A stretch of DNA of 64,000 nt from the NCBI GenBank assembly GCA_002633005.1, contig NMRA01000391.1, positions 236,159-300,158 of the forward strand. Reading direction: 5' to 3'. Under the pieces are notes generated by a model. It was not told the origin of the DNA. It was given only the letters and a program-made list of their open reading frames with translations, and ran no database searches. The DNA is from Phoronis australis (Eukaryota > Animalia > Phoronida). A program made the translations under genes and the position numbers. Numbering within the stretch: position 1 is the stretch's first letter; every line of letters begins with the position of its first letter. This document shows positions 2,981 through 60,662 of this stretch, one piece after another.

Positions 2981-3149
2981 CTTGACTTGAATTTTTGTCC
3001 AGTTAGGTTGTCTCCATCCAGATATCTTCCTTAGGCAAGGAATCACATAGAGGTTACATGTCACAGTGGCTGACACAGGGTTCCCAGGGAGACCAAAGAA
3101 CAGTTTGGCGCGGCCATCATAGTTCAGTGAAGCAAAAGTGGTGGGCTTG
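2981..3149 (-). CDS. GPHN: gephyrin exon 17 ([56 protein letters not shown])
   Basis: TTTCAG acceptor, GTAAAG donor; GLPGNPVS motif; gene continues left of the window. Confidence 0.97.
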
Positions 3150-19031: not shown

Positions 19032-19062
<31 letters not shown>

Positions 19063-28000: not shown

Positions 28001-31000
28001 TATTCATCACTGTAGACAATGATGTATTCCTCAAAATGTGTAAAAAAGCAACTGCAAATCAGATTAGATATCCTGCTGGAAATTTCATGTACTAATGTAG
28101 TGTTCACATGAGACAGCATTTTTGCGTCCTTTCATACGATCAAACTGAACAGACACACATTGGCTTTTAGAGTGCATCACCTTAGACGCAGTTGTAATAG
28201 GTTGCAAAACTAAATTCGTTCTTTACTTTTTTGGTAATCTAAGCACATTTTCTGTTTGCTAATTGGCAATATTCAGTTAAAGTGGTCCCGCATCTTGAGA
28301 ACCAGTTTTCTACACTGAAAAATGGGTATCAAACTGGTTCTCAAAATCTGGGCCTCCTGTATCGCTGATTAAACTACCGTAACACTAGACTTGCTTCATT
28401 GTCCCAATACGTAATGCTTGTCAGGAGTAAAATAGTGAATAGCATGTTCTGCACTAGTGATTCTGGTATACAAATGGATTCCAAAAATTAAAATGGACCC
28501 AAAACATTTGGAATATGGGTCCACTGGACGCCAGTATTTAGAAGGGCATAGAACACTGATCAATGGTTTTAATTATAAAAGTAAAAACTATTTTTATCTT
28601 TATTATTATTTATTAGTTAATAACCAACACAAAAACCACAACACAAATAAGGTACGTCAAAGCACAGGTGCCCTCTATTGTGCAGGTCTGTAACCAATGA
28701 CATGCTTCCCTACATGTACAAGAAACAATACATTCATTCACTGAAGTCAGGTACATCATACAAACAAATCGCGAATAAAAAAATTACCTTTTCACCCATC
28801 GAGACCCCTCCAGAAGTGACAATGATGTCAACTTTCCTTAAGCCATCGGTGAGTAATTTCAACAACGCTTCCGGTCTGAAAACAAATTCAGACCGAGGTT
28901 AATAACAACTACCCGTCAATGTTGACCACAAACACTACAAATTTCTGTTCCATTGAAATATTCATTATGTTGCCATTAGATACCAACTCGAGATCTAGTA
29001 TGAAATTCCAAAATGAGCAACATATTGTATTAAAGTTGTGTAGGATCTTATTAACAGAACTGTACAATTAGCGAAATAGCTACAAATCTATAGATTTTAA
29101 ATCTGTAAAAGATTAGAGAACATTTTTGACTTTTCACTAATCTGTTATCAATTGGGTCATGTGACCATTACATTCTAGCAAAATTTAGCAAAAAAGAAAG
29201 GTACATCGATAGCAAACCCTGCTTTGTATATGGTATATTTTGGGCCTATGGCCATATGTAATATATTTCAATAAAACACAACAAAACATAACTGGTGGAA
29301 TACAATATGTCACGATTTCATTCAACCAAAATGTGCATACTTAATTTGGTTAACATCTTTATTCATGTGGAACAGGTCCGCGATGTTTTTTTGTTAAAGA
29401 GACATTTCTTTTTTATTCGTTACATTTCGCAAACAGAAATTAAAACCAGGTTATCCAATCACACAAAATATGCGCCAAAAATTTTCCACACCACGACAGA
29501 AAATGCCAATAAATGATCAGATCAAAAAACGTAAAAAGTGTCGAAAAGAAATAAATTTTGTCAATTTCATTAATCCTTCAAAAATAACAAAATGGTAATC
29601 ATATCAGCAACCGAAGGAACTGTTAAGATGAAGCAACTTGAACGTCAGTTTATTTTCTGAGTTCCTGATCCTATTTCATTAAAGCCAAGTATAAGAATGG
29701 AATCAGTGCTTCCAAATGCCAGCACACAACCACGGATTTGATATTAGCAAACTTCTGCTAACTTCCAATCAGAGATAAATAGGAAACAAAATCTCAGATG
29801 TGACACTATGAAATGAACTATAATGACGGACAGAAGTTAAGGCCAAAAATACAAGTTTCGTCTTTACATACTCAGACTAAACAATAATGCTGGTCCGTAT
29901 CGTTTCAGCCAAGGTCTCGTGTGTTTTTGAAAACCTGCACAAAGGCATATATATAAGTAAAGATAAGCAAGGTTTGAAACAACATGACTTGCCAAGCCAT
30001 GGGTAAACAAAATAAACAAAACCTGCATAATTTTTGCTAGTCTTAGGCGGATTTCCTGGTTTTTAAAAGTGAGCAACACAAAATACCTCACCACCAACTC
30101 AATTATCAAGAACAGACCAAATCTATGTAAGTAATCTGTTTTGGCCTTAAACACTGAATACCTGTCTTCAGCAATTCCAATGTCAATAACATAAAAGCCG
30201 TGTTGTCGTAGCAAGGTAAACAGAGTCACTCTGTTACTGTCTCTGATTTTACCCTCAGGGAGTTCACTGTCTGGTTCAACAAGCTGAAACAAGACAAAAA
30301 CACATCCTAGAAACTGTGCTTTACAAAATTTGTGCAAAATGAGAAAGCTGGGGTTAACTTCTACAGGTCTGATACATTTTGTTAAGCAGATTTTGCAAAA
30401 GCTCAACAAATCAGGCAATGACAGGGAAAATGCAAGCACCGTCATGTGTGTTATTCGATAAGAAGCAATTTTAAGAGGAATTACACAGGTCATTTTAAAG
30501 AGTGAGGGGTTCAGGGGTTTAGGTTCACGTTAACAGTATAAGAGAAACTGCAGTTTGATTTTAAGATAACACCACATCAGGGTTGTCAAACCATTAAACA
30601 TTACACCTGCAACCTTCATGTTAGAAATCCATATTTCGAAAGTGAAAACTTGAAGTTTCTAAGACATTCAGATAGTTTTAATTTCAATCGAAAGATGAGA
30701 TATCCCAAAACAACAATTTTCAGTTTCAAATCGTATCGTGTTTAATAAAAAGCAACATTGCGTAAAAACTCAGCACATCACATCGATATTATGGCTTTTA
30801 CAGTCAGTATGGTTGATTTCTCCCCACATTACCATGGCTCAGCAAATCTCGATGAACCATTGTAATTCCTGACTACTTTTTAGGAGCCCGCGTTTTCAGT
30901 GCTCAAGTTATCACGGCGAAACGCGGTGAATTCCCTTTCCCATTCTCAAAATGTAGCCTACTTCATCGAAATATGTGTCTCCAGTTTCACTCTCAACATC

Positions 31001-37000: not shown

Positions 37001-40000
37001 CTCTCGTGTCGTCAACATCACCTGAATCAACATGCTACACAATGAACAGGCAGTATTCCGCACGTCTAGTAAAATATTGCTTAATAAAGATACGAAATAT
37101 GAACTTACTAAAATCCAAATAAAGGATCAAAAAATTAAACAAATTCTTAAACAAATTTAAAATAGCTTTTGTGCTCCATTAATTCATTAATTTATAACAG
37201 AAAAATACTTTCCTAGTTTCTGTCATTTGTAATAGTGGGTGCCACCTGGTGGCAAATTACAGCCAAATTCAAGTTGTCTACTATGAAGATAATGGGCTCA
37301 GTGTTTTTGTGTGAGGCAGACTGATTATGAAAGAACTATAATGAAGTCTTACTTTTCAGACTAGGAGTGTGATGATGATGGTGGTGTCCATGATGGGGAT
37401 TACTATGGTGATAGTGGTGATGACCATCTCCATGGCGATTGCTGTGGTGATGCTGTAATGCCAGAAAAGATCATAAATAACTTAGCCACATATTTACCAA
37501 CACTTGAAAATGAATCAAGTCAACAAAGGGTCTAACTAATGAATATTTATTAAGTACCTAGACACCTTTTTTTTATAAGGCAAAACGGATCTACTTCATA
37601 GAATCAGATTTCCTTCAGAGTTAGAGATTTTAAACGGAATAATTTGAGTAGCAGATACCAAAGTTGAATATTTATGGTCCTTAAATGCCAAAACTAGGAA
37701 TATAATTCAGCTAACTTCACAATTCTGGCCACAAAACAAGTAATGGGCCCTTTGCAGCAGTGGCTCAAGTGGTTGTTCAGTGTTGGAATGTGGCGATGTT
37801 CTTCTTTTGGTTTTAAGAAACAATAAACATGGCATGCAGCAAGTAATCAGAAAAAGCAAGGCAATTCCCAGACCATTTTTATGCCATGAACCACTTTGAA
37901 ATATGCCAATTTTTCACTAATATTTCTACACAAAATAATACATTTTCCTCATAGTCGGGGTGTGCCAAGTAAACTGAAACTAAATGCTTCATAGTTTCTA
38001 GGTGAGCAATTATATGAACCAAGTGACTAACCAAGCGTGAACTTAACAAAACACGACCAACAGGTTGTCAACGTGATCCAATTAAAGGAGAATGCCACCC
38101 GATTTAATTGGTCTTTTTTACAATCTTAATCGGTCTATATCCACATCGCCTCTTATATGGTCGACCTCACCTTGCCGAGAGGTGTCGAGTTAACCTGTGA
38201 GGAAGGTGAGAAGCGATGCAGCGACGTCACTGGTTCGTCTGCAGAGTGAATGCCGCTATATTGCGGTGCATCGGTTCCAGCTTGTCCGAACTATGAAGCT
38301 TTTTCGACTTCCTCGAGAGCCCGAAATGCTTAGGAAGTGGCTCGCGGTAGAGAAGAATGAAAGGTATGCTGTTAATAGCAAGTATGAGGCCGTGAAACAT
38401 CTCCGTGTCTGTGGCTGGCATTTCGTCGACAGTGATTTCTCCGACGAATTCTGGCTTACCAAAGAACTATCCGTTGCCTATGCATGTTCACGGCGCCTCT
38501 CTAGTATTTCTTGATCAGTGTATTCCGGTTCAAACTGATAGCCTGTGAAACCTAACGATCCGACCCGTGAAGTCTTCGTTGGATGAGCTCCTGACTAAGT
38601 CGAGATTGGCGCCGTGTAGACGTGTATTATCCTGCGTTCTGTTTCAAAATGAATTATTCTCATCCTAAAATGATCCAAACCAATGCTTATATGAAAATAA
38701 TCACAAAGCCCGTCTCCTTTAGGTACAATTTGTAATGCCTTGGAGTGCTTGCGAGTGCAAATGTTTTGAGATCGAAGCCAGCAATGAATAAACCACTGCG
38801 TTACCGGCTTTTGATGCCGGCAACAAAAGTATACAACTGACCGGGCACTGAGGCCGTGTGAGCGCATGCTAATTCAGTGTTTGCTGCTGTGAAACAATTA
38901 CTCGCTTTTATATGCTATTGTCACATGTTAGGGGAATCTTTATTTAGAAACAAAAATACATTATTCAAATCGTTGTTACTGTACAATCTTTGCCCTGACA
39001 GTCTGTGGAAGGGGAACCCGATTTTGGCGGCTCCCGACAAGTACTACCGGTAAGTAGATTTTCAGTTTCGTGGCTAATTCACATAAATAATTACGTGCAC
39101 ATTATTTCTTTGGCTCACTATTATATAGTCTCTTCATGACTGAAGGTTTAGTTTCCAACTCAAGCTGGTTTATGTTCGTGCCAGTCCCGGCGGCCGTGAC
39201 GGGCCTGATCGGGTTCCGAGCCACTGGCCGGGATAACAAGCGTTTTGTGTATTTAGAACTCAAAAAATCACAAGTATAAACAACACAGATCTACGTTCTC
39301 CTGTCTGTATTTCACGGAAGAATACAAATTTATCTCCGAACGGACCCCAAACTCCTGCTATGGACCTTAGTAAATTGGCCTGCCAAACTTTGTAGGCTAC
39401 GGTGTGTCCAAATAATAGCGAAATAAAACAACAAGTTTTAATAAGAACTCGGTGTATTTTTAAGGGTTTTACATCGAAGTTTGATGATTTATTGGTGTTA
39501 AACGATGAATTCAAGCGATAAGCTGACACCACTTACCCGTGTTGTGAACTGCTGAACAGACTGCGTGTGAAACCAATTACGTCATTGGATAATTTCAATA
39601 CCTCCGTCTGCCATCAGGTGTCAGGTAACGCAACCGTACCTGCCGTTATCGAGTAGAACTACTCGATCTAAATTGATACAAAATAGGTTGTTTTTTGGGT
39701 GGCATTCTCCTTTAACAATAACTAAGTTACTTCATGCTGTTCCATTATATACCACTGCAGATAACCCAAGATCGGTGAATCATTCTTTTGAGCACATGAC
39801 CCTCAGTGACACAACACTCATCCAGGTCACCCCTTTCACCTAATGTTTTTAAAAAACAGCATGAGATATCGCATATGAACAGATGAATCAACTGGTGAAT
39901 ACAAAATGTTCATACAATATAAACACAGGGAAAGAGGTGTGTATTTAAAGACACGGCTTTGCGTTGATGTTTTCTGAAGTGCAAAACCGACTGCGAATTC

Positions 40001-43000
40001 ACCTTGTGAGACATAAAGGAGACAAAATATTACTTTCACAATTTTGGGTGTGTGAAATGAAGTGAGTGTGCTAAATAAGTGTAGAATTATCGAAGTAAAA
40101 TGGATTTTGTTATTTTACAGGACAATACAAAATTGCCATTGGAGAACAGTAGCAAAAAACCCTTTGTGACTGCAAAATTGAATGTACTATGCAATCAATA
40201 ATTAATCAACAACAATATGATGTCATAGGTTCCATTTGATCAATTTAGCCAGTTCTGCCAGGTGAATCAGTAAACTAAGACATCTTATTGGCTTGTAAGT
40301 CGGAAGTTGTCATCAAAAACTAATCAAATGTCATAGCCGGTTGACCTACCAGAACCGGCGAAGTCAATCCAGTGCAACCAATGTCATTATCTACCGTTCA
40401 CGCAACCTGGCCATGACAAGTGAACATGACATATGCTGTCAATGTTAGCTATATAATATATTGACCATATAAAATGCATGTGTCTGGCAGCACATGCCAC
40501 AAGACATCTATTTTTTTAAAATTGCCTATGAATGGTTCAAATGAAATGTATAAATAGAAAATTAACATACTTTTTATTGTGCCCTGTAAAATGCAAAAAC
40601 ATGACGCAGTCTCAAATAATTAGTAATACACGGATAATAACTCCAGAGATAATAATTATATGGAATAGTGTTTCCACAAAGTGGCATTTCAAATAAAATT
40701 ACTGTTCAGTTTTTATGGTTTTTGTTGTTGTTGTTGTTGTTGGTGGAATGTCCTACCCAACAACAAACTAATATCATCCAGTTCATTCTCTGCGACCGTT
40801 CCTGATGTGTTCATAGTATTTTGGTGAAGACCAAAACTGCTATCCACATTATTACTATGTGCCAATTGATTGACATTCTCTGAACTGTCACCACCTTGCA
40901 GAATAATAACATGCTGTGCGCCGGAGGAGTCTGTTACGCGATAGTGGACGGACTGCTGAGTTGCATTTGCCAGGGCAGATTCATTTATAGATATCTCAGC
41001 ACAGTCTGTAATGGTAGCTGAAGCGGTAGTTGTGACATGGGTGGGGTGCTTAGATAGTGATATCATAGCTTCTGCCTGCTCTCTAATGTCGTAATGTCGT
41101 TGAGATCGCCGCTTTTTTATACCACAGACAATGTGGCTAATTTTACGCTTAGATGGAGTCTGTGACGGTCCTTTGATGCCTGATCTACTCAATGCGTCAT
41201 GTATTTGTGACGTCGTAGCCTTGTCAGCATGTGACACAATGACATCACGCATGTCTTCGTCAATTCGTAATGACTGGCTGTGAGGTGGTAGCCACATGAC
41301 ATTGTCTTCCGCTGGTACGTGACTGCCCGTGATCCAAACACGCCACATGGATGTGTCGCTGATGAACATTTTGAGATTAACCAAAACACTGCAGTTGTGA
41401 CGGTCCTGTTTGTGAAGCATTCCTTTACAACCTGCAAGGGACAGCCCCACTTCAGACTTGTAAGTCAAACTGTGTCAGTAGACAGCGACAGTATTAGGTT
41501 TTTGAACGTACACGTAACAAAAGACGGTCAAAGTACATGGTCAAAAGTCTATGAGCATGGCACTTACAAGAAAAAAGAAAATAAACAACAACTTCGCAAA
41601 CCTTAACTTGTATTAAACAATAGCATTAAAATGTTAAAACACATTATAACAATAATAAAAGTGAAATTTTATTTTAAAGTAACACAAAACAAATGCTTTA
41701 TCATTTTTACAATCTATTCTGTAGCAACTGTCAGACAGTGTTTCGAGAAATTGTAGGCATTAACAACATTTTAACATTACAGATTTTTTAAAAGTCTAAA
41801 AATTAAAGAAATGTTTTGGCAGTTATTTTGTCCGAAAGTGGTGACATTGTAGTACTAGTACTCACCTGGCAAACACCGGCCATAACCACCGCACCTCCTC
41901 CTACAGTTGCCATGGCCAGGACACCACAAATACCAGTTAACCACATATTCATCCTTACACAAGCCTTGCTGTACTTTGGCCAGCTTGTCTCGTCCTGAGT
42001 CAGTCAACACAAAGTTATCATCCAAACGGTTGCGTTCATGAATAGCATTTCCCCTCTGCCAACTGCCTTTGTCAATGGCAGACTGACATCTTTCTACACT
42101 GACGTAATCTTTCTTAACTTCCCGCTTGCCTCGATTCAACACAACATCTTTAATTAGAGAGTGTGAGTAAAGAAACTGCTTCAACTCCCACCCAGGGGGA
42201 ACATGGACAACTTCCCCAGGGTCTTTGATTCTTGTTCTGAACACTCTGGATGGACATACTGATTTATTTGTACTGGGGGGCGCTAGTGTTCTGTCTTCAG
42301 TTCTTTCACTGGTCTCTTTCTCATGGCATGTGTACACGTCCACACACACACAGCTTGCAGCTTCTCTGTCATCTACAACTGAGATGTAGTCTGAAGAAAC
42401 TTCGCCAGCACTGTGCTCCTGCGTGAGGATCCTCTCCCCACTGCCAGTCTCAAACGAACTCTGCTTAGAGCTGGCTTGACCAGCCGTCAACTCTCTCAAC
42501 CTCTGCCTTGTGATTACTGTTGATGTATTCAAGTTCTCAGAAAGGCAAGGACCACTGTCGAATTCCTTTTCTGTCTCATCACTAATAGCATTGCAAGTAG
42601 TTCCACCATTACCACCACCAGTGGCAGCACTAGTGCTTGCGACTGTTTCTTTACTCATTGCAGTCTGTGCACCCTGGCAGATAAAAAACTGTCTGTTAAG
42701 GACTCGTATTGTACCCACTGTTAATTCCTCCACAAACCATGAGTCTTGAACAGTAGCTTTAGCCAGCACCATCTTCTACCCTTACTCTCCAGCAGTTGTG
42801 TACACAACATGCATAATTCTTTCACAGACTAGGACCCCAAGAACTAACTTCACACATTCAAGATCTTCCTAAAAATTTCTACATAATATTGTTCTCAATG
42901 GAAATGAGTTGTACTCCACAATTAAAGCTAAGAATGATGACTTCTACATGCGACATTGAATACACCTAACATGAACCTGAGTTCACAATGAGATGAAAAG

Positions 43001-46000
43001 TCATTCAAGTTTATGTTTGAATTAAGTTTTAGTTTGGCAATTAAATCACGGGCTGACAACATTTTCAAACTCAGACTTTGCTACATACATTGTAATGTTT
43101 CTCAATATTTTATTAACATTTAGTCTTATCTAATTTTGTACTCTGTGACTATCAAGCCAGTACCAGATGGATATGTCATGACAATAAATCTATGTAACAA
43201 CCATTATAACTATACTTTATTTCATTACTAACAATCTCTCATGTTAGCAGTACTTATTGAGAAAAGTACATTACAAGTATTTAACACCATGATTTAACAC
43301 AGACAGCACCTAATGGGCCGCGGCTCTCTATTTTCACTTCCTGGGACCAACTTCAATGAAGAAAATATGTTTTATCAAAAAATAACATATTACCAACTAA
43401 TTTCTTACAAGGCCGAGTTTCATCAGCCAGTGACAATTGCCATCAATGAAAGCCAACAATAGGCAGCCTACAACGCTCAACAATGCAAGCCATCAGTAGG
43501 CAGCCTACAACACCCAACCATGCACGCCATCAGGAGGCAGCCTACGTCTCTCTGCATACTTACGGATTTGTGATGACCCTGGACAGCCTTATGTGTTGCA
43601 GAAACATTTTCCTTGTTGCCACGGAGTAGGTCAACTGCATGAGGTATAACTGGAGCAACAAATTCCAGACATTCCTAAAAAAGCCAAAAGACTCAAAATC
43701 AAGTCAACATCTGCATCAATTCATACCACAAGGGATGGACACATTTCCATGACTACGCTTCTAACTTCCGGCGATGATTCAATCTTCAGTCCCAGACCAG
43801 CAGAAACTAAGTTAAAAATCCCCAGATCTGCACTGCTGAACTTCACACGTGCACTAAAAATGGTCCTTACTTGGTGACCTAACTCCACCTTGGAGGCCAG
43901 ATTCCATGGCTGCGTCTAGGGTCCACAGCTGAAATTTAGAAACGCGGCTTTGGAGCATTTTTGTTGTAAGTGGAGTGAAAGATGTGTCTGGGGATTTGTA
44001 TCATGGGTTAGGCATCTACAATTCTGGGACTGGAGTTTGGAGATGCAATTGTGGAATTGTTTCCACACATTGACATCGGACCTCGGACCATTGAGTACTT
44101 CAGGTCAGCAGTTAATGTCTTCTCTTGTTTTGTCAACTACATTCATTGTACTCTCACCTGCATCTTAAATTTTTCTGTGACTTCATTTATTTATAACCCC
44201 TCAATTAAGACAGTCACAGCAAAAGACCATAAACAGAGACCTAAAATACTCCTGCCAAGGATTTTGAATACAGTTAAGTGGAAGCAGTCCTGCTGTGGAT
44301 TTGTCGCGTGAGATGACTAGACAAGCAAAGGCAACAGCACCAGTGTCTGTAAACATTATCTTAGACCAAATGCTAAGCATTAACAGAAAAAAAATATGGC
44401 CTAGGTGGCTACGCATTCTCCAACCACTCTCAAAACGAGTTCGATGACTACTTACACATAAGAAGGTTCTCAGGAGTATCAATCAGAAGTTTTGTGCAAT
44501 GGGCCCAATTTTGTGTCTTGCATATACCTGATGGAATTCAGACATTGGATTTTCTTGAAACTTTCACCAAAAAGAGACCATGGGATTATTAATTAAGTAG
44601 CATCACCTATTTATGCCAATTTTTATGTCCACCCCATATTACCACATTAAAACGTAGCCCTACCACCTATCAATCCCAGACAAAGTCCAGCAAAATACCT
44701 GAGCTCCCTTTTTGCTTCCTGGCAAGTTTATGATGAGAGTATTCCCTCTCATTCCACACACAGGCCTGCAAATGGTGGAACAGTCACAATCAGCGAGTAC
44801 ATTCACTAACATGACATTGGTGTGTCAACAGTGTAACCCAGTGATAACAACAAAAACATATATGCTACAGCATCCTTTGGTAACCATAACTATTGGTCAC
44901 TAAACACAAAACTGGTGGCTGCCCACAGGTACTCTCATTACTTGGCTATGCAGAGCATGCCTCCAAATGGGTTCATTTTTCACCAAACCAACCATGACAT
45001 AGTTATTATATTATCCTGCATCAATGTAACTTTCTGCAAAAATTCCTATAGGAGGCTCGAAATTTTCAGAAAAAATCACAAATTAAACAATTTAACCATC
45101 TGGTAAACACCTGAGTAATAATGATGTTTCCACAAACTGTACAACTAGGCCATTTGGTTGGTATATAGGTAAAGATACTTACCTGGATAGGGCTGCCATG
45201 GGTGTTACTTCCAGCGACCCTTTTAACATGGTCAGGATGAGGCCCATAGCCTCACGCTCAATCACCTCCTTTGTGGCCTAAAATAATGAGAAGACATTAA
45301 GGTACAAACGCGAATTAATAAACAAGTTGTCTTTCACTCATTCCCCACACACTGAGATACAATTATAATCATTTAATGCTAACTATAGGCAGATAAGATG
45401 ATACAAATTCATTATCAAATAATTGTTTGCCACAGCATTCCCACTCCTACCTAACTGCAGTGACAGGTCTGGCTGCTTGGAGGAGGCATTGGCCAAAGAT
45501 CAAAACTTTGATACCAGACAACAAGTCAAAATGCCCTTCTCTGGGTAGTCCACTATTCTACACAAACCACCTAGGTGTTCTCATTGCCAGCATTCTATAT
45601 TCACGAATACATTTTTCTCGCACAAGCTGCAGGTTAATAGTCAGATAGAATGTGCCTACATTTTAAGGACCAGTTTTCTCCACAGGCATCAAACTGGTTC
45701 TTGAAATGTAGGCATGTTATATCTCACTATCGCCCATTTTTCTCTCAGCAACAGCCTCATCCCCAAGCCTTAAGATGGCGCTGAACGGTTTAGCAATTTG
45801 AGGCTTTATGGGAAATCAAAAGTGTCAGAATTCTGACACATTTTTACGGAAATCGACGGAATATCACAAGTAACATAACTTTGATATTTTCTGCAGTATG
45901 ATATAAAAATGAAAATTAATGGTGTATTGCAGCAGTTTAGGTCTAAATATTGCAAAAATGATGTATTTTGATTCAAAAAACAGATTAATTTCTACGACAC

Positions 46001-49000
46001 TATTAATAAAATTTTAAAAAGAATTGAAAATAAGTACGCGGAGAACCTTTATTTCAAACAATAACCAAAACAATGCCTTCTGCTTCATGAATGGCAGTAA
46101 CAATGCCTGTGAAAATAATTAAAACCTGCCTTTGTTTTAATGACGTCAAGACAGCGGCCAATCATTGTGCAGAAACCAATTCCTATAACCAAGCCTCAAA
46201 TGACTAAACCGATCAGCGCCATCTTGAGGCTTGGGGACAAGGCTGTGTCTAGCATAGACAAGGAAATAGAGGTTTTGTCAAATTTTGTGATTTTTGATAC
46301 CTTTTTTGAGCCTCTATTCCTTTTTCAGCGAATTTCAAAGTCAAAGGCCAAAAATGTGATGCAGAATAAAGTTTCCATGGTGACGCATAGCGGTTATGAT
46401 GTGAAACGACTCACTGAGAACTGCATAATGCAGTGCCTCCTCAAACTTACCTCTGGAGTGACATCTCTTGGTGAGAAGCCAGTGCCACCTGTTGTCAATA
46501 TCAGATCCAAGTGATTCTTATCAGACCACTGAAGTAACACGTCCTAAGAGTGATATAAAATGATAGGTGATGAGGCAACCGAATAAGAATATACAAGAAG
46601 GGAAAGATTAATATTAAAGCATAGGTTAAGTAATGGAGTGAAGGTTTCCATGCAGATTCTGTATCCATTGACCTGCAAGATTTCTAAACTTCTTGGACAC
46701 TAAAACATCACAACAAAGATTACACCAGTCTGTCAACAGATGTCAAGGAATAACCTTTGAAAGCAGGAAACGATTGGCAAAAATTAATTTGTGAAGTTTC
46801 CAACAGTGAAACCCCACAAAAGGTTCCAAGCATTGCAAATTTTTCGTAGCACTCTCTCTCTCTCTTGATGTTCATGAAATATTTTGAACTTGAATGCATT
46901 TAAAGTTGTTATAAACTAGCTTTTGATTTAGACCATTTACCTGACTAAGAGATTAATTTCAAATCATTTCTTAGTCAAATTCGAGGTAATTTCAGGGTTT
47001 CAAAAGATCTGACAGTTTTTTGCTTAAGACCCGGCATGTTCTTAATGAATAATTAATTGTCAGTTCTTTACAAGCCTAGAAATCACCTTTCATGTGAGTA
47101 AGTAACAAGTTGAGACCAGTTAATATATCAAGTGGTCTAACTCAAAGTCCGCTTTTTTGACAGAATACGAATTCACTTTAAAAAATGTATAATTAAACAT
47201 GGATCAAAGTTAATTTGAACAGATAACATTAATTATCAGTGCCAATATGTGACAATACTCCAAGTGTGGAAGGTACACTAATTAGAAGACAACAACAAAA
47301 GAACAAGACAGTACCTAAAACGATCACAAATGATAATCATGATTACCTTGATCTTCGGTACTTCATCAGGTACAATGGCTCGTTGACTGACCACTCCATT
47401 TAACCTATGAACAGAATTCCAACATTGAACTAGATCACAAGAATGTAACACTTTGCTGGCAAAAGAACACCAGTCCAATAATAAAAAGAGTGAATTAAAA
47501 TAATAAACATCAGCCCAATTGTGAAGTCCCTACTAACAGACTTATGGTACTTTAGGCAATGAAGTTATGTTTTTTTCACAATCTTTATGCTCAGGGTTCT
47601 CCATTTCCCAAAATTAAGATGGGAATGTAGTTATTAAGCACCTAAAGGGCATGCAAACAAACCACTGAAGGTCGTTTGGGGATAGATAGGGAAAGGGCAT
47701 TACATACCATTACCTTGGACTGTTAAAACCAAGAAATTACCAACATCACGATCTGATCTAGCATCACGTTTGATTAAACTTGACAAACAAGCGTATTGTT
47801 TTAGCACACAATGCTGTGGTAGTAAGTGGGTCAGAGCTTACAGTCACACAAAGGAATCAGCAGATGAAAGTTAAGTCTAATTTCTCTGACAGTCAACCGT
47901 TTTTCTGGTGACAGTATTTCACAAAAAAACACATCTTCTTCAGGACATCTGTTGAACGTCATTTGGAAATTTAAATATCTGTTGGCGTCAGTTTATCACG
48001 ATAAATAAAGTTAACTTCTTCAACTCACAGCTTTTTATTGGTGATAAGATGCTTCAAGTTAGGCCCACTCTTGTCTTCACAGTTTCCAAGAAAGCAAGTG
48101 TCGCTAACTGCAAAATGAACATGAAATTTGCAATATGATACACGCAACACATGCAGATCATAGTTCGTTAGGATTTACCTGTAAAAAAATGTTTAAGTAT
48201 TACAACTAAGTTCTATCCTGTTAGAAACTCAGCCAATTTCACTCCACTTTGTACAGTACTTCATCAATAGATTTGTACAATAACTGCTGGCATCATAACT
48301 TCTATTGAGCACCGATCTGAGTTGCTTTTGTGTGGAGCAGGGCAAGTGAGTTTGAAGCACAAGAACACTGTCTAGCAGCAATAAATTGTAATGCTGTACA
48401 ATGAAGCAGTTGATATTTTAATTGCGTATCTTCTGTACTTGAATTCTTCAAGAAAAGTTACGTAAGGATCACATTTCCCTGAACAATACGATAAAAATTA
48501 GCCAGAAACGATGTACGCTTGGATTCTGCATGTTGACCGGTACTTCAATCGTGACAAACGTCAACAATACTATAGTTCCACAAGTTCACTTCACATGCGC
48601 TCTATAAACTATACAGTGTGCGACATGATGCACACATGCGACAAGTGCCTTCTGAGCACAAGGCACGTGACATGCAACAAAACATTCATGTGGAGAATTT
48701 CTCGCTTACACTGGTCACCGCTTGGATTCCCTAAGCCCCAGACAACATTTATGGAGCCTATTCAGCTCGCCCTTTGTATTGACGAGATGTGAGCTAATGA
48801 AGTGGAAAGGTAATAGCTAGCACTACTTTCTTAACAATGGTGGTTGTTACTACACCCAAATTGTTATTCTCTGGCATTTGTACAGAGTTAAAGGCTGCAA
48901 TGTGGAGAGCAGTTTTAACTTGGTACATTTTAAATATTACAAAAAAAAACTAAAAAGTTAATTTGCGTTGATCTTGACAAAGGGCCACTTCTCAAAGGAA

Positions 49001-50243
49001 CGTTGGTTTTAAATATGTTCCATACCTGTTTTCATTACTTTCATTTAATACTCTTGTCTACTTGTTTTTTTTCTTACCAGTTAGGGTTGCTATCTTTTTA
49101 TTTTGTATTTAAACAAAGTATCAGAACAACTTAGAAGTCAGTTAATTCTGAACCCATCCCTAACTTTTTCAGATTACAGCTACACCAAACATGTCACAGT
49201 AAACAAAACTACATGCGTCATTAGTTCAAGTTCAATCGTTATTAGAACTCAAATCATAAAATACGTACAAAAGTGCAAACATGGTGATAACCAAACTGAG
49301 GATTTGGAACCTCTGGACGAATTTTGGTTGCAGTAACTACTTAACTATTCTAGCTTTGCCTCAGTCATAAAAAATGAAATCACAGTTCTTGCCCACCGAC
49401 CAACCTCATCCACTTTTTGCACTCTCTCGTTGACTACAAAGCTAGCCATCTTATTGTCTTCACAGGTGTTCCATTACCGTTCTACAAGCTACTATCGAAA
49501 TTGGCACATTTCCGCGAATAGCAATTTTAGTGTACTACTCCTGGAGCAGTAAGAAACATTAGTTGCCGATTAGGAAAGGAGATGTAGCCTCCAATGAGAT
49601 TGGGAGGTAGTTAGAGCACATATGAAGGACACCAACTGAAGTTAAGTAAAGAAGTCTGCTTAACCTCCCTTTTAGGGTTTAGGCAAATACTCTTCTGCTC
49701 AATCAAACATTTGTAAATGCACAATTGTGCTAGATGACAAGATGTCCTGCCTCATGAGCTTAACTCCAATTTGATCATGCCTATGGTATTTTTTGGACTT
49801 TGGACTCAATTTTATGCATACTGATTTACAGGTAAGGAAATGTCTTATCCCAAGCCATAGACCCCATCCAAACTTTTTTTTGGGAGCAGACAGCAAAGAA
49901 ACTAAGTCAAGAACTTATCACTATCACTAGATATCAATCACTTCATCATAAATTTAGTTATCGGGAATGTGAAGAGGATCCGGCAAACTGACATGCAATT
50001 GATTGCGGATTGTAACACTATCACTTATCAGCCATAGGCACAGGTAAGAAAGCAAGAAACTTCAAAGAATTGGCCGCTGAAGTTGAGAGTATCGCCGTAG
50101 ACGTCTCCAGACTCCTACATCAACTAATTCTTAGGTTATGCAAAACATACGTATGGCCTTATTCATTGTTTTGAACACAAACCTGTAAGGATTCCAATTT
50201 GAATTTTGTTTTGGGAACTTTGCGAAGCCGAACTATCCGCCAT
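2981..50243 (-). CDS. GPHN: Gephyrin / molybdenum cofactor biosynthesis protein (G domain + E domain), 17 exons in window, 3' end outside window
   Basis: join(complement 50183-50243, 48029-48107, 47347-47404, 46451-46543, 45183-45277, 44699-44765, 43564-43674, 37353-37452, 36890-37021, 35370-35462, 34385-34440, 33846-34024, 32021-32174, 30162-30283, 28788-28875, 14879-14952, 2981-3149). All introns GT-AG, phases consistent, 1731 nt = 577 codons with no stop. Hallmark motifs: [101 protein letters not shown]. Confidence 0.97.
6335..6574 (-). mobile_element. tRNA-derived SINE
   Basis: Minus strand reads GGAGGCAATGTGGCCTAGTG (A box) ... GCTTCGAGTCCC (B box), then a GACCCTTGAGCCAG core-like segment and a TTATTTTATTATTTT tail; no intact cloverleaf. 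Confidence 0.7.
6862..7382. mobile_element. PIF/Harbinger-like MITE
   Basis: TIRs AGGCCCTTTCACACT / AGTATGAAAGGGCCT (one mismatch), TGA/TAA flanks; related internal sequence in reverse orientation at ~2300-2385 and ~4760-4840. Confidence 0.65.
9042..9765. mobile_element. Foldback-type MITE with long imperfect TIRs and an internal 18-bp minisatellite
   Basis: TATGGAAAGCCAAAGC...GAATTAAACTCTC versus GAGAATTTAATTC...GCTTTGTCTTTCCATA; about six copies of AGAAAATTTCTTGCCAGG at 9228-9332, inverted degenerate copies at ~9535-9590. Confidence 0.7.
11375..11885 (+). repeat. Dispersed repeat, copy 1 (copy 2 at ~17410-17995)
   Basis: Colinear shared blocks: CTGCTAAAATTGTG, AAGTTTTTAGTA.TTTAATACCAGCAAA, TGTAAGTTTCACGA.GAG, TAACGGA..TCAACACACAG. 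Confidence 0.75.
13325..13507 (+). repeat. ~180-bp dispersed repeat; other copies at 52872-53060 (+) and ~47700-47900 (-)
   Basis: Shared GAAATTAGA...CTGCTGATTCCT..GTGTGACTGTAAGCTCT...TCAAGTTTAATC...GATCAGATC.TG.TGTTGGAAATTTCTTGGTTT. Confidence 0.8.
13838..14170 (+). repeat. Degenerate tandem repeat, ~125-bp unit, about 2.5 copies
   Basis: GATTGAAA.C.TTCAATC.AT.CTAA...AATCGCAAGGTAG...CAGGTGTAGAA repeated. Confidence 0.7.
14879..14952 (-). CDS. GPHN: gephyrin exon 16 ([25 protein letters not shown])
   Basis: CTTCAG acceptor, GTATGT donor; [10 protein letters not shown] motif; flanked by 13.8 kb and 11.7 kb introns. Confidence 0.97.
17410..17995 (+). repeat. Dispersed repeat, copy 2 (see 11375-11885)
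   Basis: Same colinear blocks as copy 1. Confidence 0.75.
19004..19100 (+). repeat. (ATT)n microsatellite
   Basis: Imperfect ATT/ACT run. Confidence 0.9.
22435..23560 (-). mobile_element. Decayed Tc1/mariner-superfamily (maT/DDxD-type) transposase
   Basis: Frameshifted fragments in correct order: [27 protein letters not shown] (~23550-23455), [13 protein letters not shown] (~23085), [44 protein letters not shown] (stop 22510-22512). Confidence 0.88.
28788..28875 (-). CDS. GPHN: gephyrin exon 15 ([29 protein letters not shown])
   Basis: TTTTCAG acceptor, GTAATT donor; TSGGVSMG motif. Confidence 0.97.
30162..30283 (-). CDS. GPHN: gephyrin exon 14 ([41 protein letters not shown])
   Basis: TTTCAG acceptor, GTATTC donor; GKIRDSN motif. 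Confidence 0.97.
32021..32174 (-). CDS. GPHN: gephyrin exon 13 ([51 protein letters not shown])
   Basis: ATTGTAG acceptor, GTATGC donor. Confidence 0.97.
32609..33321. mobile_element. Probable non-autonomous element bounded by short inverted repeats, containing a tRNA-like remnant
   Basis: TTATACCACAT at ~32610 and ATGTGGTATAA at ~33309; minus-strand A/B-box-like segment at ~32700-32775. Confidence 0.35.
33846..34024 (-). CDS. GPHN: gephyrin exon 12 ([60 protein letters not shown])
   Basis: CTTCTAG acceptor, GTAGAA donor; MoeA TGAPLP.GADAVV motif. Confidence 0.97.
34385..34440 (-). CDS. GPHN: gephyrin exon 11 ([19 protein letters not shown])
   Basis: TTTTAG acceptor, GTACGT donor; phases fit both neighbours. 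Confidence 0.93.
35370..35462 (-). CDS. GPHN: gephyrin exon 10 ([30 protein letters not shown])
   Basis: TTGCAG acceptor, GTGAGA donor; MoeA DGYAV motif. Confidence 0.97.
36890..37021 (-). CDS. GPHN: gephyrin exon 9 ([44 protein letters not shown])
   Basis: VARR.R.S.FPL.S motif at the start of the E domain; GTAAGG donor; an alternative phase-0 acceptor would start the exon at 37034. Confidence 0.92.
37353..37452 (-). CDS. GPHN: gephyrin exon 8, His-rich linker ([33 protein letters not shown])
   Basis: ATTACAG acceptor, GTAAGA donor, 100 nt, phase 0 in and 1 out; matches the phase-1 acceptor at 37021. Confidence 0.8.
38086..39711 (+). mobile_element. Kolobok-like DNA transposon (non-autonomous) with degenerate THAP domain
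   Basis: Perfect 15-bp TIRs AGGAGAATGCCACCC (38086-38100) / GGGTGGCATTCTCCT (39697-39711), TTAA on both flanks (38082-85, 39712-15), purine-purine 5' terminus. THAP-like remnant LFRLP...RKWL...[13 protein letters not shown] at ~38250-38514. Confidence 0.8.
40573..40578 (-). terminator. Putative polyadenylation signal of the nested gene / alternative terminal exon
   Basis: AATAAA on the minus strand about 135 nt after the stop codon. Confidence 0.5.
40713..41431 (-). CDS. Nested intronic gene, coding exon B ([21 protein letters not shown]...[11 protein letters not shown]...polyQ, stop)
   Basis: Acceptor CCCTTGCAG|GT in phase 1 joins the two longest ORFs of the window in frame (…GRCLPG-CKGMLH…). 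TAA at 40713-40715. Total 541 aa from ATG 42772 or 503 aa from ATG 42658. Confidence 0.85.
41866..42772 (-). CDS. Nested intronic gene, coding exon A: uncharacterised Cys/His-rich putative zinc-finger protein (N-terminal S/T/E-rich region plus first half of the Cys domain)
   Basis: 305-aa ORF ending at a perfect donor CCAG|GTGAGT (41866/41865), phase 1. The start is ambiguous: ATG 42772, ATG 42658 (MSKETVAS), or splicing into the acceptor at 42673. Confidence 0.85.
43440..43545. repeat. Short tandem repeat (~37 bp, about 3 copies) just downstream of the gephyrin exon 7 donor
   Basis: GCCATCA..AGGCAGCCTAC(AAC) units. Confidence 0.7.
43564..43674 (-). CDS. GPHN: gephyrin exon 7, end of G domain ([37 protein letters not shown])
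   Basis: TTTTAG acceptor, GTAAGT donor, 111 nt, phase 0/0; PHAVDLL motif. Confidence 0.95.
44699..44765 (-). CDS. GPHN: gephyrin exon 6 ([22 protein letters not shown])
   Basis: TTTGCAG acceptor, GTATTT donor; INLPGS motif. Confidence 0.96.
45183..45277 (-). CDS. GPHN: gephyrin exon 5 ([32 protein letters not shown])
   Basis: TTTTAG acceptor, GTAAGT donor. Confidence 0.96.
45751..46246. mobile_element. MITE with ~55-bp TIRs
   Basis: ACAGCCTCATCCCCAAGCCTTAAGATGGCGCTGAACGGTTTAGCAATTTGAGGCTT is the near reverse complement of AAGCCTCAAATGACTAAACCGATCAGCGCCATCTTGAGGCTTGGGGACAAGGCTGT. Confidence 0.8.
46451..46543 (-). CDS. GPHN: gephyrin exon 4 ([31 protein letters not shown])
   Basis: CTCTTAG acceptor, GTAAGT donor; G-domain GGTG signature. 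Confidence 0.97.
47347..47404 (-). CDS. GPHN: gephyrin exon 3 ([19 protein letters not shown])
   Basis: TTCATAG acceptor, GTAATC donor; IVPDE motif. Confidence 0.95.
48029..48107 (-). CDS. GPHN: gephyrin exon 2 ([27 protein letters not shown])
   Basis: TTTTGCAG acceptor, GTGAGT donor; MogA-type DxSGP motif. Confidence 0.95.
50183..50243 (-). CDS. GPHN: gephyrin exon 1 ([20 protein letters not shown])
   Basis: ATG at 50243, donor AG|GTTTGT, phase 1; joins exon 2 to give GILT-VSD. Confidence 0.9.
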
Positions 50244-55500: not shown

Positions 55501-58500
55501 TCACTTCCTGATGAGGTGGACACTCTACCTGTTGATACTGGTCATCCTGGCTCTGGCCATCTTTGAACGTCCAGCTGTGGTTACTTCACCTTATTGGGTG
55601 AGTGACGGTTTAATTTTTCCATTACATTGTTGTCTTCTGTGGTACTAAATTCTGTGTATAGCAGCAAAACTGTTTAGATTCATTGTCCTTAGAAAATTGT
55701 GAAGATAGGATTTGACACTTAACTGAGACTTAACTGACTGAGGTAAGATCGTTTAATTCAGTTGAGAATTGCTAGTCGTACCTGACATAAACAAGAAAGG
55801 GATATGGTGGATACTTGGTGTCAGGAAGGGTTATAGTAACAAAGAGGAGAGATGAAAAGATTTTGTTCTCCTTTCCTTTCCAAAATCCCTCTTCCATTGA
55901 TCGTAAGTAGTTGCCACACATTTGTGAAACTTGATAATTATGCAAAATTTTTGACCATGAGTCATTGTTCTGAAGCCGTCACCATTTGGAAAAGTGAATA
56001 TCTGGTGCCATGTTTTACTTAGTGTTAAGTTATTATTCAGCTAGTGTAGTCACACAGTCACTAAGTGTCTGTTTACCAAATGATTTCACCAAATCAAGTC
56101 ATTCCAATCATCAGTCCTATATCCGTTAGGTTATCAGAGTTTAACAATCAATTCAAAAACCTTTAGTTGCTAGAAATAAATTAAACTCCCACACAGCACT
56201 AATTAGGTCAAGTCGAATTCATAACTTTGACCTTGAACATATCAAGTTAACAAATTAAGATAAATCCTCCTGTTGAAGCAATCCCTAAATTCCGCAGTGT
56301 TATCGTGTGCAATTGGAAGGTAACTCTCCCTAAAAACAAAAATGAAGGGTTCCACCCTGCCAATGCTTGAAACAAAACAATGGTTATCAAAGATAATGCT
56401 GCATGGGGCTTTACTTGGATTAAACATAATTTCAGATTGTGCTCTATGCAATCACTCAGGTATCCAACTTATGTTGGTTACTTTGATGTACTGAGTGACT
56501 TCATTTCCAGTCTGTTCCAGGCTTCCATGTTAGTTGAGGGCTTATGTACTGAGTGATTTCATTTCCATTCCATTCCAGGCTACCATGCTAGTTGAGGGCT
56601 TGTGTTTGGGCTTCTTCCTCTTCAGAGCACTGCATGCATCCAGATTCCAGACAAATAAAGATTACTTTGGAGATAAAAAGAACGTTGTTATACTAGTGAT
56701 TATTGTGGTATGTTGATTTTAATAAAGTATTGTTCTCTTCAAGTTCATAAAATTGCAGTTTTCCATTTTTTCAAGGCTGATTGTATTCAATGTTAAAGTG
56801 TGCACAATTTTACCAAAGTTTTGTTTTACGAAGTAAATTAATATAAAACCAACCATGTTAGTGGTGAAATAGGGTTTTCCTCAACTTGTATTTTTGATAA
56901 GCGAAATTTTAAATTCCATCATATGCCTTGAATTGAAGAATGTCTACCATGTAGTTGATATGACAGCTGATCATTTGATTTACATCTTCATTTTTGTTTG
57001 AGATGTTAGAAAAAAGCGCTTTGATTTTTACAATCCCTTAGTTGCTAAATGTTTCTCATTTGGTGTTTATGTTTCATGTATCGTGATATGGTCAGTTGTT
57101 GGCTGTTGATTCGTTTCATGCCAATCAATACTTAGCCACACCCCTTGATATTTTTAATGTATTTCCTTACTATTGTCCAACACATTTTGAATGGTGCATG
57201 GAAATTCTTAACAACATCCATTCTGACTTTGATATCAGATCAGTGCTCAACTACATTCATTCATATTTTTTAGCTCTCTTTCTTTGATATGATCTGCTAC
57301 ACCATTTGAAGCAGTACTGAGTCAAATCTGTTGCACTGTCTGATGTCAATAAATAATTAGCCCCACCCATTGATACTTCCAGCTCACTTTCATTGATATG
57401 ATCTGCTACACCATTTGAAGCAGTACTGAGTCAAATCTGTTGCACTGTCTGATGTCAATAAATAATTAGCCCCACCCATTGATACTTCCAGCTCACTTTC
57501 ATTGATATGATCTGCTATGTTGTTTGGACCAGTGTGACACCAGAGAATGCCAAGCCCCACCCATTCCGCTGGTCACGACCTTTACGACCATTATTCATTG
57601 TTAACTTTGGTGAAGGGAAGGAGGTAAATACCTTTATATTCTTAAACTTCACCTGCTCAATTAAAGCTCTCCTATACAATCAAGTAAGGCAGGTTGAAGG
57701 TAATTGTCAGTCGTCCTGTAACCCTTTCATATTCCGTCAAAACAACTTTTTAAATGAGTGCATCTTTTCTGAATTCCTTGTCTTAAGCTGTCATAGAATC
57801 ATTTGTAATCACCTGACCATTTTTGTGAAAAGTATGACTGGGTCTAGTACGACATCTTTTGAACTTAATTTTGCGAATGAGTGTTGTCACTTATTTCTCA
57901 CCCTTGCCATATTGATTAAAAAATTTGGCTGGTTGACGTGGCAAAAAACCCTCCGTTCATCACAAAAATTATTTAGTGTATTAAGCTTTATAAAATTGGT
58001 CTCAAATTTCTGCTTAATCAAACTGGAGATGATATTAAGGCTTCAAAAAAGGAGTTGCTTATTGCTTGAAACCTGGCTCTCCAAGTTGGCATCTCTTATG
58101 TCATTTTATGCCCGACTTTGCTCTGAAGGAATAGCAAACTGTCAGCACTAATCAAACCCTCAAATTACTTCTCGTCTGAGTATGAAATAAGTAGAGACCA
58201 AATATGTAAATGTATTATTATTATTTATGTTATAATAACATTATAAATGTATTATTATTATTTATGTTATAATAACATAAGGGTGCCAGTAAATACAATC
58301 TCAAAGACAGAATATTCACCACACCCCCAGACTTAATGGGCTTACTCAATCACCTAATAACAATTAAATCATGACATAATATATTGCACACACTCAAATA
58401 TGACCGCTTCAGACTACCGTAGTTTATAAACAAATAATTACTTCTAACCTGCAAAGCGTCTTGAATGAATTTCGCTAGAGTTGTCTAAATCAAGGTTTAA

Positions 58501-60383: not shown

Positions 60384-60662
60384 NNNNNNNNNNNNNNNNN
60401 NNNNNNNNNNNNNNNNNNNNNNNNNNNNNNNNNNNNNNNNNNNNNNNNNNNNNNNNNNNNNNNNNNNNNNNNNNNNNNNNNNNNNNNNNNNNNNNNNNNN
60501 NNNNNNNNNNNNNNNNNNNNNNNNNNNNNNNNNNNNNNNNNNNNNNNNNNNNNNNNNNNNNNNNNNNNNNNNNNNNNNNNNNNNNNNNNNNNNNNNNNNN
60601 NNNNNNNNNNNNNNNNNNNNNNNNNNNNNNNNNNNNNNNNNNNNNNNNNNNNNNNNNNNNNN
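60384..60662. other. Assembly gap (N run)
   Basis: Run of n characters. Confidence 1.

Follow-up and report, generated by a model that had tools for sequence, protein, structure and literature searches.

A probable second gephyrin product in Phoronis australis and other animals: the G domain joined to a transposase-derived, predicted DNA-binding domain through alternative terminal exons

Gephyrin is a molybdenum-cofactor (Moco) synthesis enzyme and a synapse scaffold. In the phoronid Phoronis australis its gene probably yields a second, conserved product, in which exons 1-7 are spliced to two terminal exons nested in intron 7 and which is predicted to be a trimeric, DNA-binding nuclear regulator. 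The window, the whole 64,000-nucleotide stretch of contig NMRA01000391.1 that was analyzed, carries these nested exons on the same strand as gephyrin, in frame with exon 7, and they are transcribed. Their domain descends from the N-terminus of a Mutator-like (MULE) transposase, of which the RNase H/SWIM part has been lost. The relevant features are as follows.

50183..50243, minus strand: gephyrin coding exon 1, with the ATG at 50243 (exon model; RNA joint 48107-50183)
43564..48107, minus strand: gephyrin coding exons 2-7 (tblastn, exon model, motifs, RNA joints, PDB match)
48107-48029, 47404-47347, 46543-46451, minus strand: gephyrin exons 2-4
45277-45183, 44765-44699, 43674-43564, minus strand: gephyrin exons 5-7
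42674..43563, minus strand: proximal 890 nt of intron 7 (GTAAGT ... CAG), which splicing to exon A would remove
41866..42673, minus strand: nested exon A, a linker plus the front half of the MULE-derived domain
41432..41865, minus strand: 434-nt phase-1 GT-AG intron dividing the Cys cluster, at a position common to orthologues
40713..41431, minus strand: nested terminal exon B, the rest of the zinc-binding module followed by a predicted helix-turn-helix
40573..40578, minus strand: AATAAA, which may serve the fusion isoform as poly(A) signal (sequence motif)
37353..37452, minus strand: canonical gephyrin exon 8 (His-rich linker), matching the loose ends of 4+4 reads at 43564

Exons 1-7 of the host gene comprise 188 codons without a stop, and three of their introns are seen as RNA joints. 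Exons 2-7 complete a G domain that is 61-62% identical to those of Lineus and Lingula, and the motifs of the catalytic Asp pair of Mo-insertase G domains (gephyrin D61 and D94, whose roles are treated in the available part of PMC9458074) are both present. The seventh coding exon (43674-43564), for which gephyrin 1jlj is the best PDB match (E 4e-4), ends in phase 0 directly before a GTAAGT donor. Two phase-0 acceptors compete for this donor: that of exon 8 at 37452, an exon whose 3′ end is predicted from a GT donor, and that of exon A at 42673 (CAG/GGT). Use of the latter leaves a frame of 188 + 508 = 696 aa open. The splice sites, phases, reading frame and AATAAA of the original prediction all lie on the minus strand where it had put them; the acceptor at 42673, which it called strong, is an ordinary one, with 11 pyrimidines in the 17 upstream positions against 9-14 for the ten other acceptors of the gene. 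The fusion chain carries no E domain, as its stop codon (40715-40713) precedes all E exons.

Exon A opens with an acidic, Ser/Thr-rich linker of about 147 aa (42673-42233), its seventh codon being Met, and continues into the first half of the captured domain (42232-41867), which is 27% identical to a MULE N-terminus. Exon B, with 34% identity to a MULE, supplies the remaining half of the zinc module and the predicted helix-turn-helix with its basic end (41429-41085), and finishes in a low-complexity tail. The AATAAA at 40578-40573 is the sole AATAAA or ATTAAA in the 712 nt past the stop. The nested exons are single copy within the window. Since proteins from seven phyla match their coding part at 41-58% identity and 40 of 41 genomic ORFs break at the position of the internal intron, the nested ORF is more than a chance reading frame.

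Named homologues come from molluscs, annelids, nemerteans, brachiopods, echinoderms, hemichordates and cephalochordates. A G domain stands in front of the nested domain in 35 of the 39, and 31 of those 35 have no E domain. The presence of such models in seven phyla indicates that the fusion is not peculiar to the Phoronis australis genome. Many of them are RefSeq entries labeled isoform X1 or X2, and the annotation sources (RefSeq and GenBank submissions) are independent. Haliotis rufescens has the fusion (XP_046338106.2) as well as full gephyrin (XP_046338115.2; available part of PMC13262936). Furthermore, a 2,952-nt Logan contig encodes an entire 935-aa fusion without an intron and differs by three residues from a Mytilus RefSeq isoform; genomic ORFs of its cluster end at the intron, and we infer that this contig is cDNA. 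Together with homology of the domain to MULEs, the named homologues and the contig bear out the proposal that alternative terminal exons join the gephyrin G domain to a transposase-derived domain.

Four models read through from the G domain and the captured domain into the E domain (Owenia, Liolophura and two from Diadema), one of them flagged LOW QUALITY. They show that the nested exons lie between G and E exons in three phyla, and thus linkage of the orthologues to gephyrin, which the original prediction had made a point on which it could fail, holds in the annelid, chiton and sea urchin. The same models could be taken to mean that the nested exons are an internal cassette of a giant gephyrin rather than the end of a separate isoform. 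This is extremely unlikely: only 4 of the 35 G-bearing models continue into the E domain, exon B contains no GT[AG]AG donor but does have a stop and the AATAAA, and no loose end inside exon B is listed in three RNA runs at a threshold of 3 reads.

The original prediction underestimated the age of the fusion, as both protostomes and deuterostomes carry it. It is likely an overlooked protein more than 550 million years old. A phylogenetic tree places the fused rows on one side and the MULEs on the other at 58/89, a value that is not starred and leaves a single origin without statistical support, and groups the deuterostome fused rows at 94/91. The probable history is one capture that predated the protostome-deuterostome split and was retained by selection for a gene-regulatory role. 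Four diverged proteins encode G and captured domain in a single ORF; their G domain is only 22-25% identical to that of the window and has lost the N-terminal TVSD motif. No metagenome locus was found for these four, and their sole outside match is a Ciona gephyrin (E 4e-4). None of the 80 matches listed is a named fusion from a vertebrate, an arthropod, a nematode, a cnidarian or a tunicate. The absence from vertebrates and these other groups is weakly supported, because an unfiltered HMM search, whose listing stops short of its 80 weakest matches, added 102 proteins, of which 18 were checked by name.

Transcription in Phoronis australis was assessed in three raw-read runs labeled as the same species, about 19% of each being read, with a threshold of 3 reads for a joint. 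Sense-strand RNA falls on both nested exons in all three, with depth at 41840-42301 in each run and none at 41532-41839, within the intron at 41432-41865. The expectation of junction reads was thus answered in part: the nested exons are transcribed in the sense direction, whereas neither 43564^42673 nor 41866^41431 is listed at 3 reads in the fraction of the three runs that was read. The contig run X4 has zero depth on gephyrin exons 5-7 and on the nested exons alike. Eight reads connect exon 7 with exon 8 (4+4 loose ends at 43564), which means that full-length host mRNA is also made. Exon 7 to exon 8 splicing dominates these few reads, which lend no support to the suggestion that the fusion is produced at the expense of full-length gephyrin. 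Depth arithmetic is consistent with one 43564^42673 read against the 8 to exon 8, and the footprint of one read stops exactly at the acceptor 42673. RNA 3′ ends had been expected near 40550; zero reads cross the AATAAA in the three runs.

All three runs have almost no depth over 42302-42609, despite coverage of 41840-42301, and one run has six unspliced sense reads at about 43072-43401 in intron 7. The gap and the intronic reads would fit a shorter or independent transcript. On such an account the nested exons are a separate gene that begins independently within intron 7 or exon A, and the database fusions are annotation merges or minor read-through. The unlisted fusion joint and the Met early in exon A would agree with it, as would the four named homologues in which no G domain was detected (Saccoglossus, Mytilus coruscus, Aplysia and one Mya model), and CSB-PGBD3, too, has a cryptic promoter that yields a solo product (PMC2268245, available text). 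Against this stand the fused models of seven phyla from independent annotation sources, the intron-free contig that covers G and both nested exons, the phase-0 fit of the exon A acceptor to exon 7 with a read footprint ending there, and the diverged lineage with both parts in one ORF. A separate nested gene is therefore very unlikely. Joining of exon 7 to exon A instead of exon 8 is seen in the gene models of relatives and in the contig, and in Phoronis australis it is suggested by the single depth footprint.

The captured domain is homologous to the N-terminal part of MULE transposases, with E values to 2.5e-27. The unfiltered HMM search also returned proteins in which the domain is N-terminal and is followed by a MULE/ZSWIM RNase H; the RNase H call is above the cut-off for P0177 (PF10551, E 2.3e-8) and below it for P0160 and P0159. 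A tblastn search of the window with three MULE catalytic regions found no RNase H (DDE)/SWIM region at E 1, and none of 26 inverted-repeat pairs in 37400-44700 convincingly brackets the nested exons. A recent transposon insertion was considered and rejected, given the absence of inverted repeats and of the catalytic domain and the conservation of the intron.

Several features relate the domain to the WRKY-GCM1 type of zinc finger, for which criteria of the insert-containing form are given in the available part of PMC1702500. All 39 fusion rows have C109, C115, C119, C125, C129, H139, C141 and H165, and each of these eight residues recurs in 8-10 of the 10 MULE-type rows. In the predicted model (pLDDT 91), C109 ends strand 2 and C141 starts strand 3, as the Cys criterion of that type has it; the insert between them is 31 residues long (criterion 20-70) with four invariant Cys, and W157, the Trp expected in strand 4, occurs in 39/39 fusion rows. 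The HxH at the end of strand 4 is absent: H165 is usually followed by xP, and the invariant H139 may substitute. As the HxH pair is not kept, the domain is best called WRKY-GCM1-like and not a strict member of the superfamily. Fold matches are weak, every Z being below 8: WRKY1 (Z 5.0, rmsd 3.5, 76 residues aligned), AFT2 (Z 4.7 and 3.7), GCM (Z 2.8) and HTH, Myb and homeodomain DNA-binding domains (Z up to 6.0), with five WRKY-GCM1 members among the top 50 of 48,161. Scores were no higher when the zinc module was folded by itself, the best WRKY-GCM1 member then reaching Z 3.7, and at E 0.001 Foldseek found nothing similar to either model. ESM Atlas look-alikes at 0.85-0.90, which are leads only, fall in GCM, ALS2CR8, ZSWIM3_N and FAR1 clusters. 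Pfam has nothing for the nested exons and sub-threshold matches only for orthologues, FAR1, GCM, WRKY and FLYWCH being unmatched in both, and a PDB sequence search found no match. Judged by its sequence, the domain is a conserved two-zinc family absent from Pfam.

The domain is predicted to fold as a WRKY/GCM-like sheet with two zincs and a helix-turn-helix, each of these sub-domains being basic (pI 9-10). By analogy with known G-domain trimers, the fusion protein would present three DNA-binding heads on long, flexible linkers, much as BTB multimerizes the FLYWCH fingers of mod(mdg4), and mixed trimers with full-length gephyrin may form. The fusion could also be made without its domain acting as a sequence-specific transcription factor, serving as a MULE repressor at transposon ends, a chromatin-, RNA- or protein-binding module, or an E-less competitor that caps the gephyrin lattice. 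The low Z scores and the altered HxH pair leave room for this, and transposon ends of the cognate kind may exist, since molluscs and amphioxus still have related MULE-type proteins. However, the putative DNA-reading strand residues are near-invariant over seven phyla, as are the zinc ligands, a pattern that would be more in keeping with an unchanging host target than with an arms race against fast-evolving transposon ends, and both basic sub-domains resemble DNA-binding folds. Such other roles are unlikely, though less so than a separate nested gene.

An addition to the regulator reading is that the G domain serves as a Moco-pathway sensor, in which binding of molybdopterin or MPT-AMP switches DNA binding, location or stability. 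Both catalytic Asp motifs are retained in the window, and among 34 fusion rows one is kept in 30 and the other in 33; G domains bind MPT with a KD of 0.1 uM (PMC9458074, available part). Precedents are the Aft1/Aft2 regulators, which derive from MULEs, and the WRKY-GCM1::isochorismatase fusions of fungi, for which a sensor role was proposed (PMC1702500, available part), as well as MoaB2, a bacterial G-domain homologue that modulates transcription (PMC11656743, available part). On the other hand, the G exons are common to full-length gephyrin, so their conservation is uninformative on the fusion; the linker varies from 128 to 519 aa without sequence conservation, which speaks against tight allosteric coupling; and in the four single-ORF fusions, which keep the domain behind a diverged G, ligand chemistry may be dispensable. 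Sensing is therefore a doubtful addition. Equally tentative is the wider idea that the gephyrin locus of the protostome-deuterostome ancestor was a switch between a Moco enzyme and a molybdopterin-sensing transcription factor, maybe held or released by mixed gephyrin trimers, that was lost in vertebrates as gephyrin turned into a synaptic scaffold.

Among the closest known arrangements is CSB-PGBD3, for which the available text describes a piggyBac element in ERCC6 intron 5 that is restricted to primates, is about 43 My old and has its entire transposase in a single exon (PMC2268245). Both cases combine same-strand transposon coding sequence in a host intron, an in-frame 3′ splice site, an own poly(A) signal (a candidate here) and an alternative terminal exon alongside full-length host mRNA. 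The gephyrin case differs in being Mutator-like, in comprising the N-terminal part only, in two exons with an intron within the zinc module, in lacking inverted repeats, in spanning protostomes and deuterostomes, and in having a metabolic enzyme domain as its host half. Like mod(mdg4), it combines a common N-terminal oligomerization domain with an alternative C-terminal exon set bearing a WRKY-GCM1-type zinc finger; mod(mdg4) has a POZ/BTB domain and many FLYWCH exons in insects (PMC1702500, available part), whereas in the gephyrin fusion a catalytic G domain has a single alternative end, whose two-zinc module is larger and is accompanied by a helix-turn-helix. The WRKY-GCM1 type shares the MULE N-terminal origin, the Cys pair around an insert and the Trp in strand 4, and GCM also the four Cys in the insert, AFT2 and GCM structures being among the fold matches; here HxP replaces HxH, and the domain is fused to gephyrin G by alternative splicing and does not stand alone. 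With gephyrin and other Mo-insertases the fusion shares identical G exons and both catalytic Asp, full-length G-E coming from the same locus (available parts of PMC13262936, PMC9458074 and PMC11489736).

No published description of a gephyrin-transposase fusion isoform, and no paper linking gephyrin with a Mutator transposase, was found in literature in which subscription journals are thinly covered; gephyrin, MoCF and molybd do not occur in PMC10027918, nor do transpos, zinc finger or mollus in PMC11489736. Gene models from seven animal phyla thus contain a second product of a heavily studied protein that is absent from the literature searched. The ancestral bilaterian locus would have made a Moco enzyme and a predicted DNA-binding protein, the latter of which vertebrates may have lost. 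The fusion is perhaps ten times older than CSB-PGBD3 and pairs a predicted transposase DNA-binding module with a ligand-binding enzyme domain rather than a chromatin domain. It bears on a standing question, the existence in animals of transcriptional sensing of Moco status; were the sensing reading true, the protein would be the first animal regulator of Moco or molybdenum status and among the oldest host-transposase fusions. Ultimately, many invertebrate database entries named molybdopterin molybdotransferase are the fusion isoform.

The minus strand of the window carries a complete gephyrin gene, whose G-domain exons lie at 50.2-43.6 kb and whose E-domain exons lie between 37 and 3 kb, as placed by tblastn with annelid and chiton gephyrins. 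Coding exons 1-7 form 188 stop-free codons, and three introns among them are backed by RNA joints. Within intron 7 lie two nested exons, A (42673-41866) and B (41431-40713), which together encode a conserved domain whose cysteine cluster is split by the intron between them. The signals of this candidate alternative ending are as follows:

43564, minus strand: donor of gephyrin exon 7, phase 0
42673, minus strand: acceptor of nested exon A, phase 0
41865-41432, minus strand: intron between exons A and B, GT-AG, phase 1
40713, minus strand: stop of exon B in the exon model
40578-40573, minus strand: AATAAA, the sole such signal in the 712 nt past the stop

The original prediction joined exons 1-7 to the nested exons through phase-0 sites in an open 696-aa frame followed by AATAAA; the exon model contains that frame, with 508 codons from the nested part, and the signal is present. 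The acceptor at 42673, which had been called strong, exists, but its pyrimidine content (11 of 17) is ordinary: ten other acceptors of the gene have 9-14. In the E-domain part, tblastn gives two very long introns, 14955-28788 (about 14 kb) and 3148-14878 (about 12 kb). Intron 7 also holds a 1.6-kb element (38082-39715) that has no relation to the nested exons. Its terminal inverted repeats are 19 nt long, match perfectly and start with TTAA, and positions 38194-38514 hold an ORF with a THAP domain (E 2.5e-6); the heavy read depth of the element on two strands comes from other copies. The TTAA and THAP pattern is reminiscent of Kolobok elements.

Part of exon A matched 12 proteins at 48-58% identity in a sequence search, and a profile built on the whole domain yielded 80 matches, 39 named and 41 unnamed. 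Domain mapping placed a G domain ahead of the conserved domain in 35 of the 39 named matches, and the E domain is absent from 31 of these. The other four (Owenia, Liolophura and two Diadema) read on into E, which shows that in three phyla the nested exons sit after the G exons and before the E exons. No G domain was detected in Saccoglossus, Mytilus coruscus, Aplysia and one Mya model, the last of which has a RefSeq cluster mate that does carry one. The species behind the named matches belong to Mollusca, Annelida, Nemertea, Brachiopoda, Echinodermata, Hemichordata and Cephalochordata; the 80 profile matches include no named vertebrate, arthropod, nematode or cnidarian fusion, the matches of a wider HMM search being named in part.

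The unnamed matches comprise 36 with only the first half of the cysteine cluster, four with only the second and one with the whole, a split which shows that the intron within the zinc module is common to relatives. The whole match is an ORF of 935 aa, carried by a Logan contig of 2,952 nt; a Mytilus RefSeq isoform differs from it at 3 residues, and the genomic ORFs that cluster with it end at the intron. We infer from this that the contig represents spliced RNA across the G/nested junction. Haliotis rufescens, found among the fusion matches, also has full gephyrin according to PMC13262936. The observation is real, and the existence of the fusion in these animals is very probable.

Searches of Pfam and PDB sequences returned nothing for the captured domain. 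At E 0.001, an HMM search run unfiltered over 1.84 billion representatives gave 230 matches. Among the best 150 of these 230, proteins ranked beneath the orthologues carry the domain N-terminally (E 2.5e-27 to 1e-14). A MULE/ZSWIM RNase H region (Pfam) then follows, above the cut-off in the protein P0177 (E 2.3e-8) and below it in P0160 and P0159, and P0160 has a SWIM-like Cys/His motif. Among these MULE-type proteins are two from Glomeromycota and one from Mytilus. Direct alignment with the exons of the window gives 27% over 130 aa and 34% over 74 aa; the window holds no trace of the MULE catalytic region and no inverted repeats bracketing the nested exons. Eight Cys/His positions, enough for two zinc sites, are present in every one of the 39 fusion rows; among the 10 MULE-type rows, each is kept in 8-10.

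The Lineus domain model has a confident fold (pLDDT 91). Over its first 175 residues it resembles WRKY domains (Z 5.0, with rmsd 3.5 over 76 aligned residues) and, at Z 4.7, AFT2; for the last 65 residues the matches, at Z up to 6.0, are helix-turn-helix DNA-binding domains from transposases and from Myb and homeodomain proteins. All of these scores are below Z 8. Foldseek found no significant match for the models, and the zinc module modelled alone had lower fold scores than within the whole domain. Leads from the ESM Atlas (GCM, ALS2CR8, ZSWIM3_N, FAR1) point in the same direction. Measured against the WRKY-GCM1 definition in PMC1702500, the domain has the insert, the Cys pair and a Trp in strand 4, and it lacks the HxH pair; it is therefore called WRKY-GCM1-like. 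With a pI of 9.2-10.0 the domain is basic, and an acidic, unconserved linker of 128-519 aa separates it from the G domain.

Related copies occur in other settings. P0111, P0116, P0117 and P0119, single-ORF proteins from contigs of 1.8-3.9 kb, combine the conserved domain with a G domain that has diverged strongly, and have no E; outside this group they match only the gephyrin of Ciona, which likewise has a diverged G domain, so that a tunicate source is a guess. The Mytilus galloprovincialis protein VDH95965.1 (P0140) bears the source name "gephyrin", yet it is a MULE-type fragment without G or E, and its label is a name transfer via the fusion. Diverged copies in stand-alone host proteins of Branchiostoma (P0147, P0167), Dreissena (P0133) and Octopus (P0185, P0188) suggest that the domain was domesticated separately on other occasions too; the matches include no G-domain fusion from Octopus.

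A tree of 27 rows (16 fused, 2 diverged-G, 7 MULE and 2 solo), from which 30 rows of a larger quick tree were dropped, including the two half-domain rows of the window, separates the fused and diverged-G rows from the MULE and solo rows with support 58/89 (not starred). The deuterostome rows group at 94/91. Given this tree, the shared intron and the shared position after the G exons, a single capture predating the protostome-deuterostome split would be the simplest reading.

G domains are described as trimeric, with MPT as the ligand that they bind and adenylate (PMC9458074), and the G domain of the window retains both catalytic Asp motifs; on these grounds a trimer with three DNA-binding heads is the likeliest product. 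It would assemble on the G domains, with transposase-derived heads predicted to bind DNA held on flexible linkers, an arrangement analogous to that of mod(mdg4). Whether fusion or full-length gephyrin is made would depend on which of two mutually exclusive acceptors, 42673 or 37452, both phase 0, is used. The whole chain, from fusion to trimeric, predicted DNA-binding product by this choice of acceptors, we consider reasonably probable. Pterin sensing by the G domain of the fusion is possible though unlikely, with precedents in isochorismatase fusions and Aft2 (PMC1702500) and in MoaB2 (PMC11656743). Conservation of the G domain is uninformative on this point because its exons are common to full-length gephyrin. 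A mainly structural role is favoured by the length and variability of the linker and by the diverged-G lineage.

Three raw-read RNA runs labelled P. australis, aligned to 40300-44900, gave 40, 31 and 21 reads from about 19% of each run. Sense-strand depth covers both nested exons in all three, with zero sense-strand depth at 41532-41839 in the nested intron. Exon 7 reads with a loose end (4 each in runs X1 and X3) run on into canonical exon 8 at 37452. The junction reads predicted for the fusion were not listed: neither 43564^42673 nor 41866^41431 appears at the threshold of at least 3 reads in the sampled 19% or so, although depth fits one read of each. In X1, 63 nt in bin 42610-42763 and 6 nt in the next would be the footprint of one read stopping at 42672, where a 43564^42673 read would be cut; in X3, 52-53 nt in bin 41378-41531 would fit one 41866^41431 read. 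Counting against the junction are the near absence of depth over 42302-42609, towards the 5' end of exon A, in all three runs, six unspliced X1 sense reads in intron 7 (43072-43401) and the lack of reads over AATAAA in these runs. Depth dips may stem from read filters, and the intron 7 reads and exon A gap could reflect pre-mRNA, low depth, allele divergence, filtering or a shorter transcript. The exact exon 7/exon A junction in P. australis is likely; in these samples the fusion seems to be a minor product next to full-length gephyrin.

CSB-PGBD3 is a known instance of the same kind of fusion (PMC2268245), and fusion proteins are already in RefSeq as "uncharacterized isoform X1". No description of a gephyrin G-domain fusion was found in the literature searched; a 2026 Mo-insertase phylogeny (PMC13262936) removed splice variants, and the text covered comments only on a Pinctada protein of 1,183 aa that includes a G domain.

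Elsewhere in the window, a 97%-identical duplicate (about 57292-58300 and 60671-61687) flanks an N gap at 60384-60662 and probably arose in assembly. An exon within this duplicate belongs to a gene on the plus strand, transcribed away from gephyrin, that resembles a two-pore channel.
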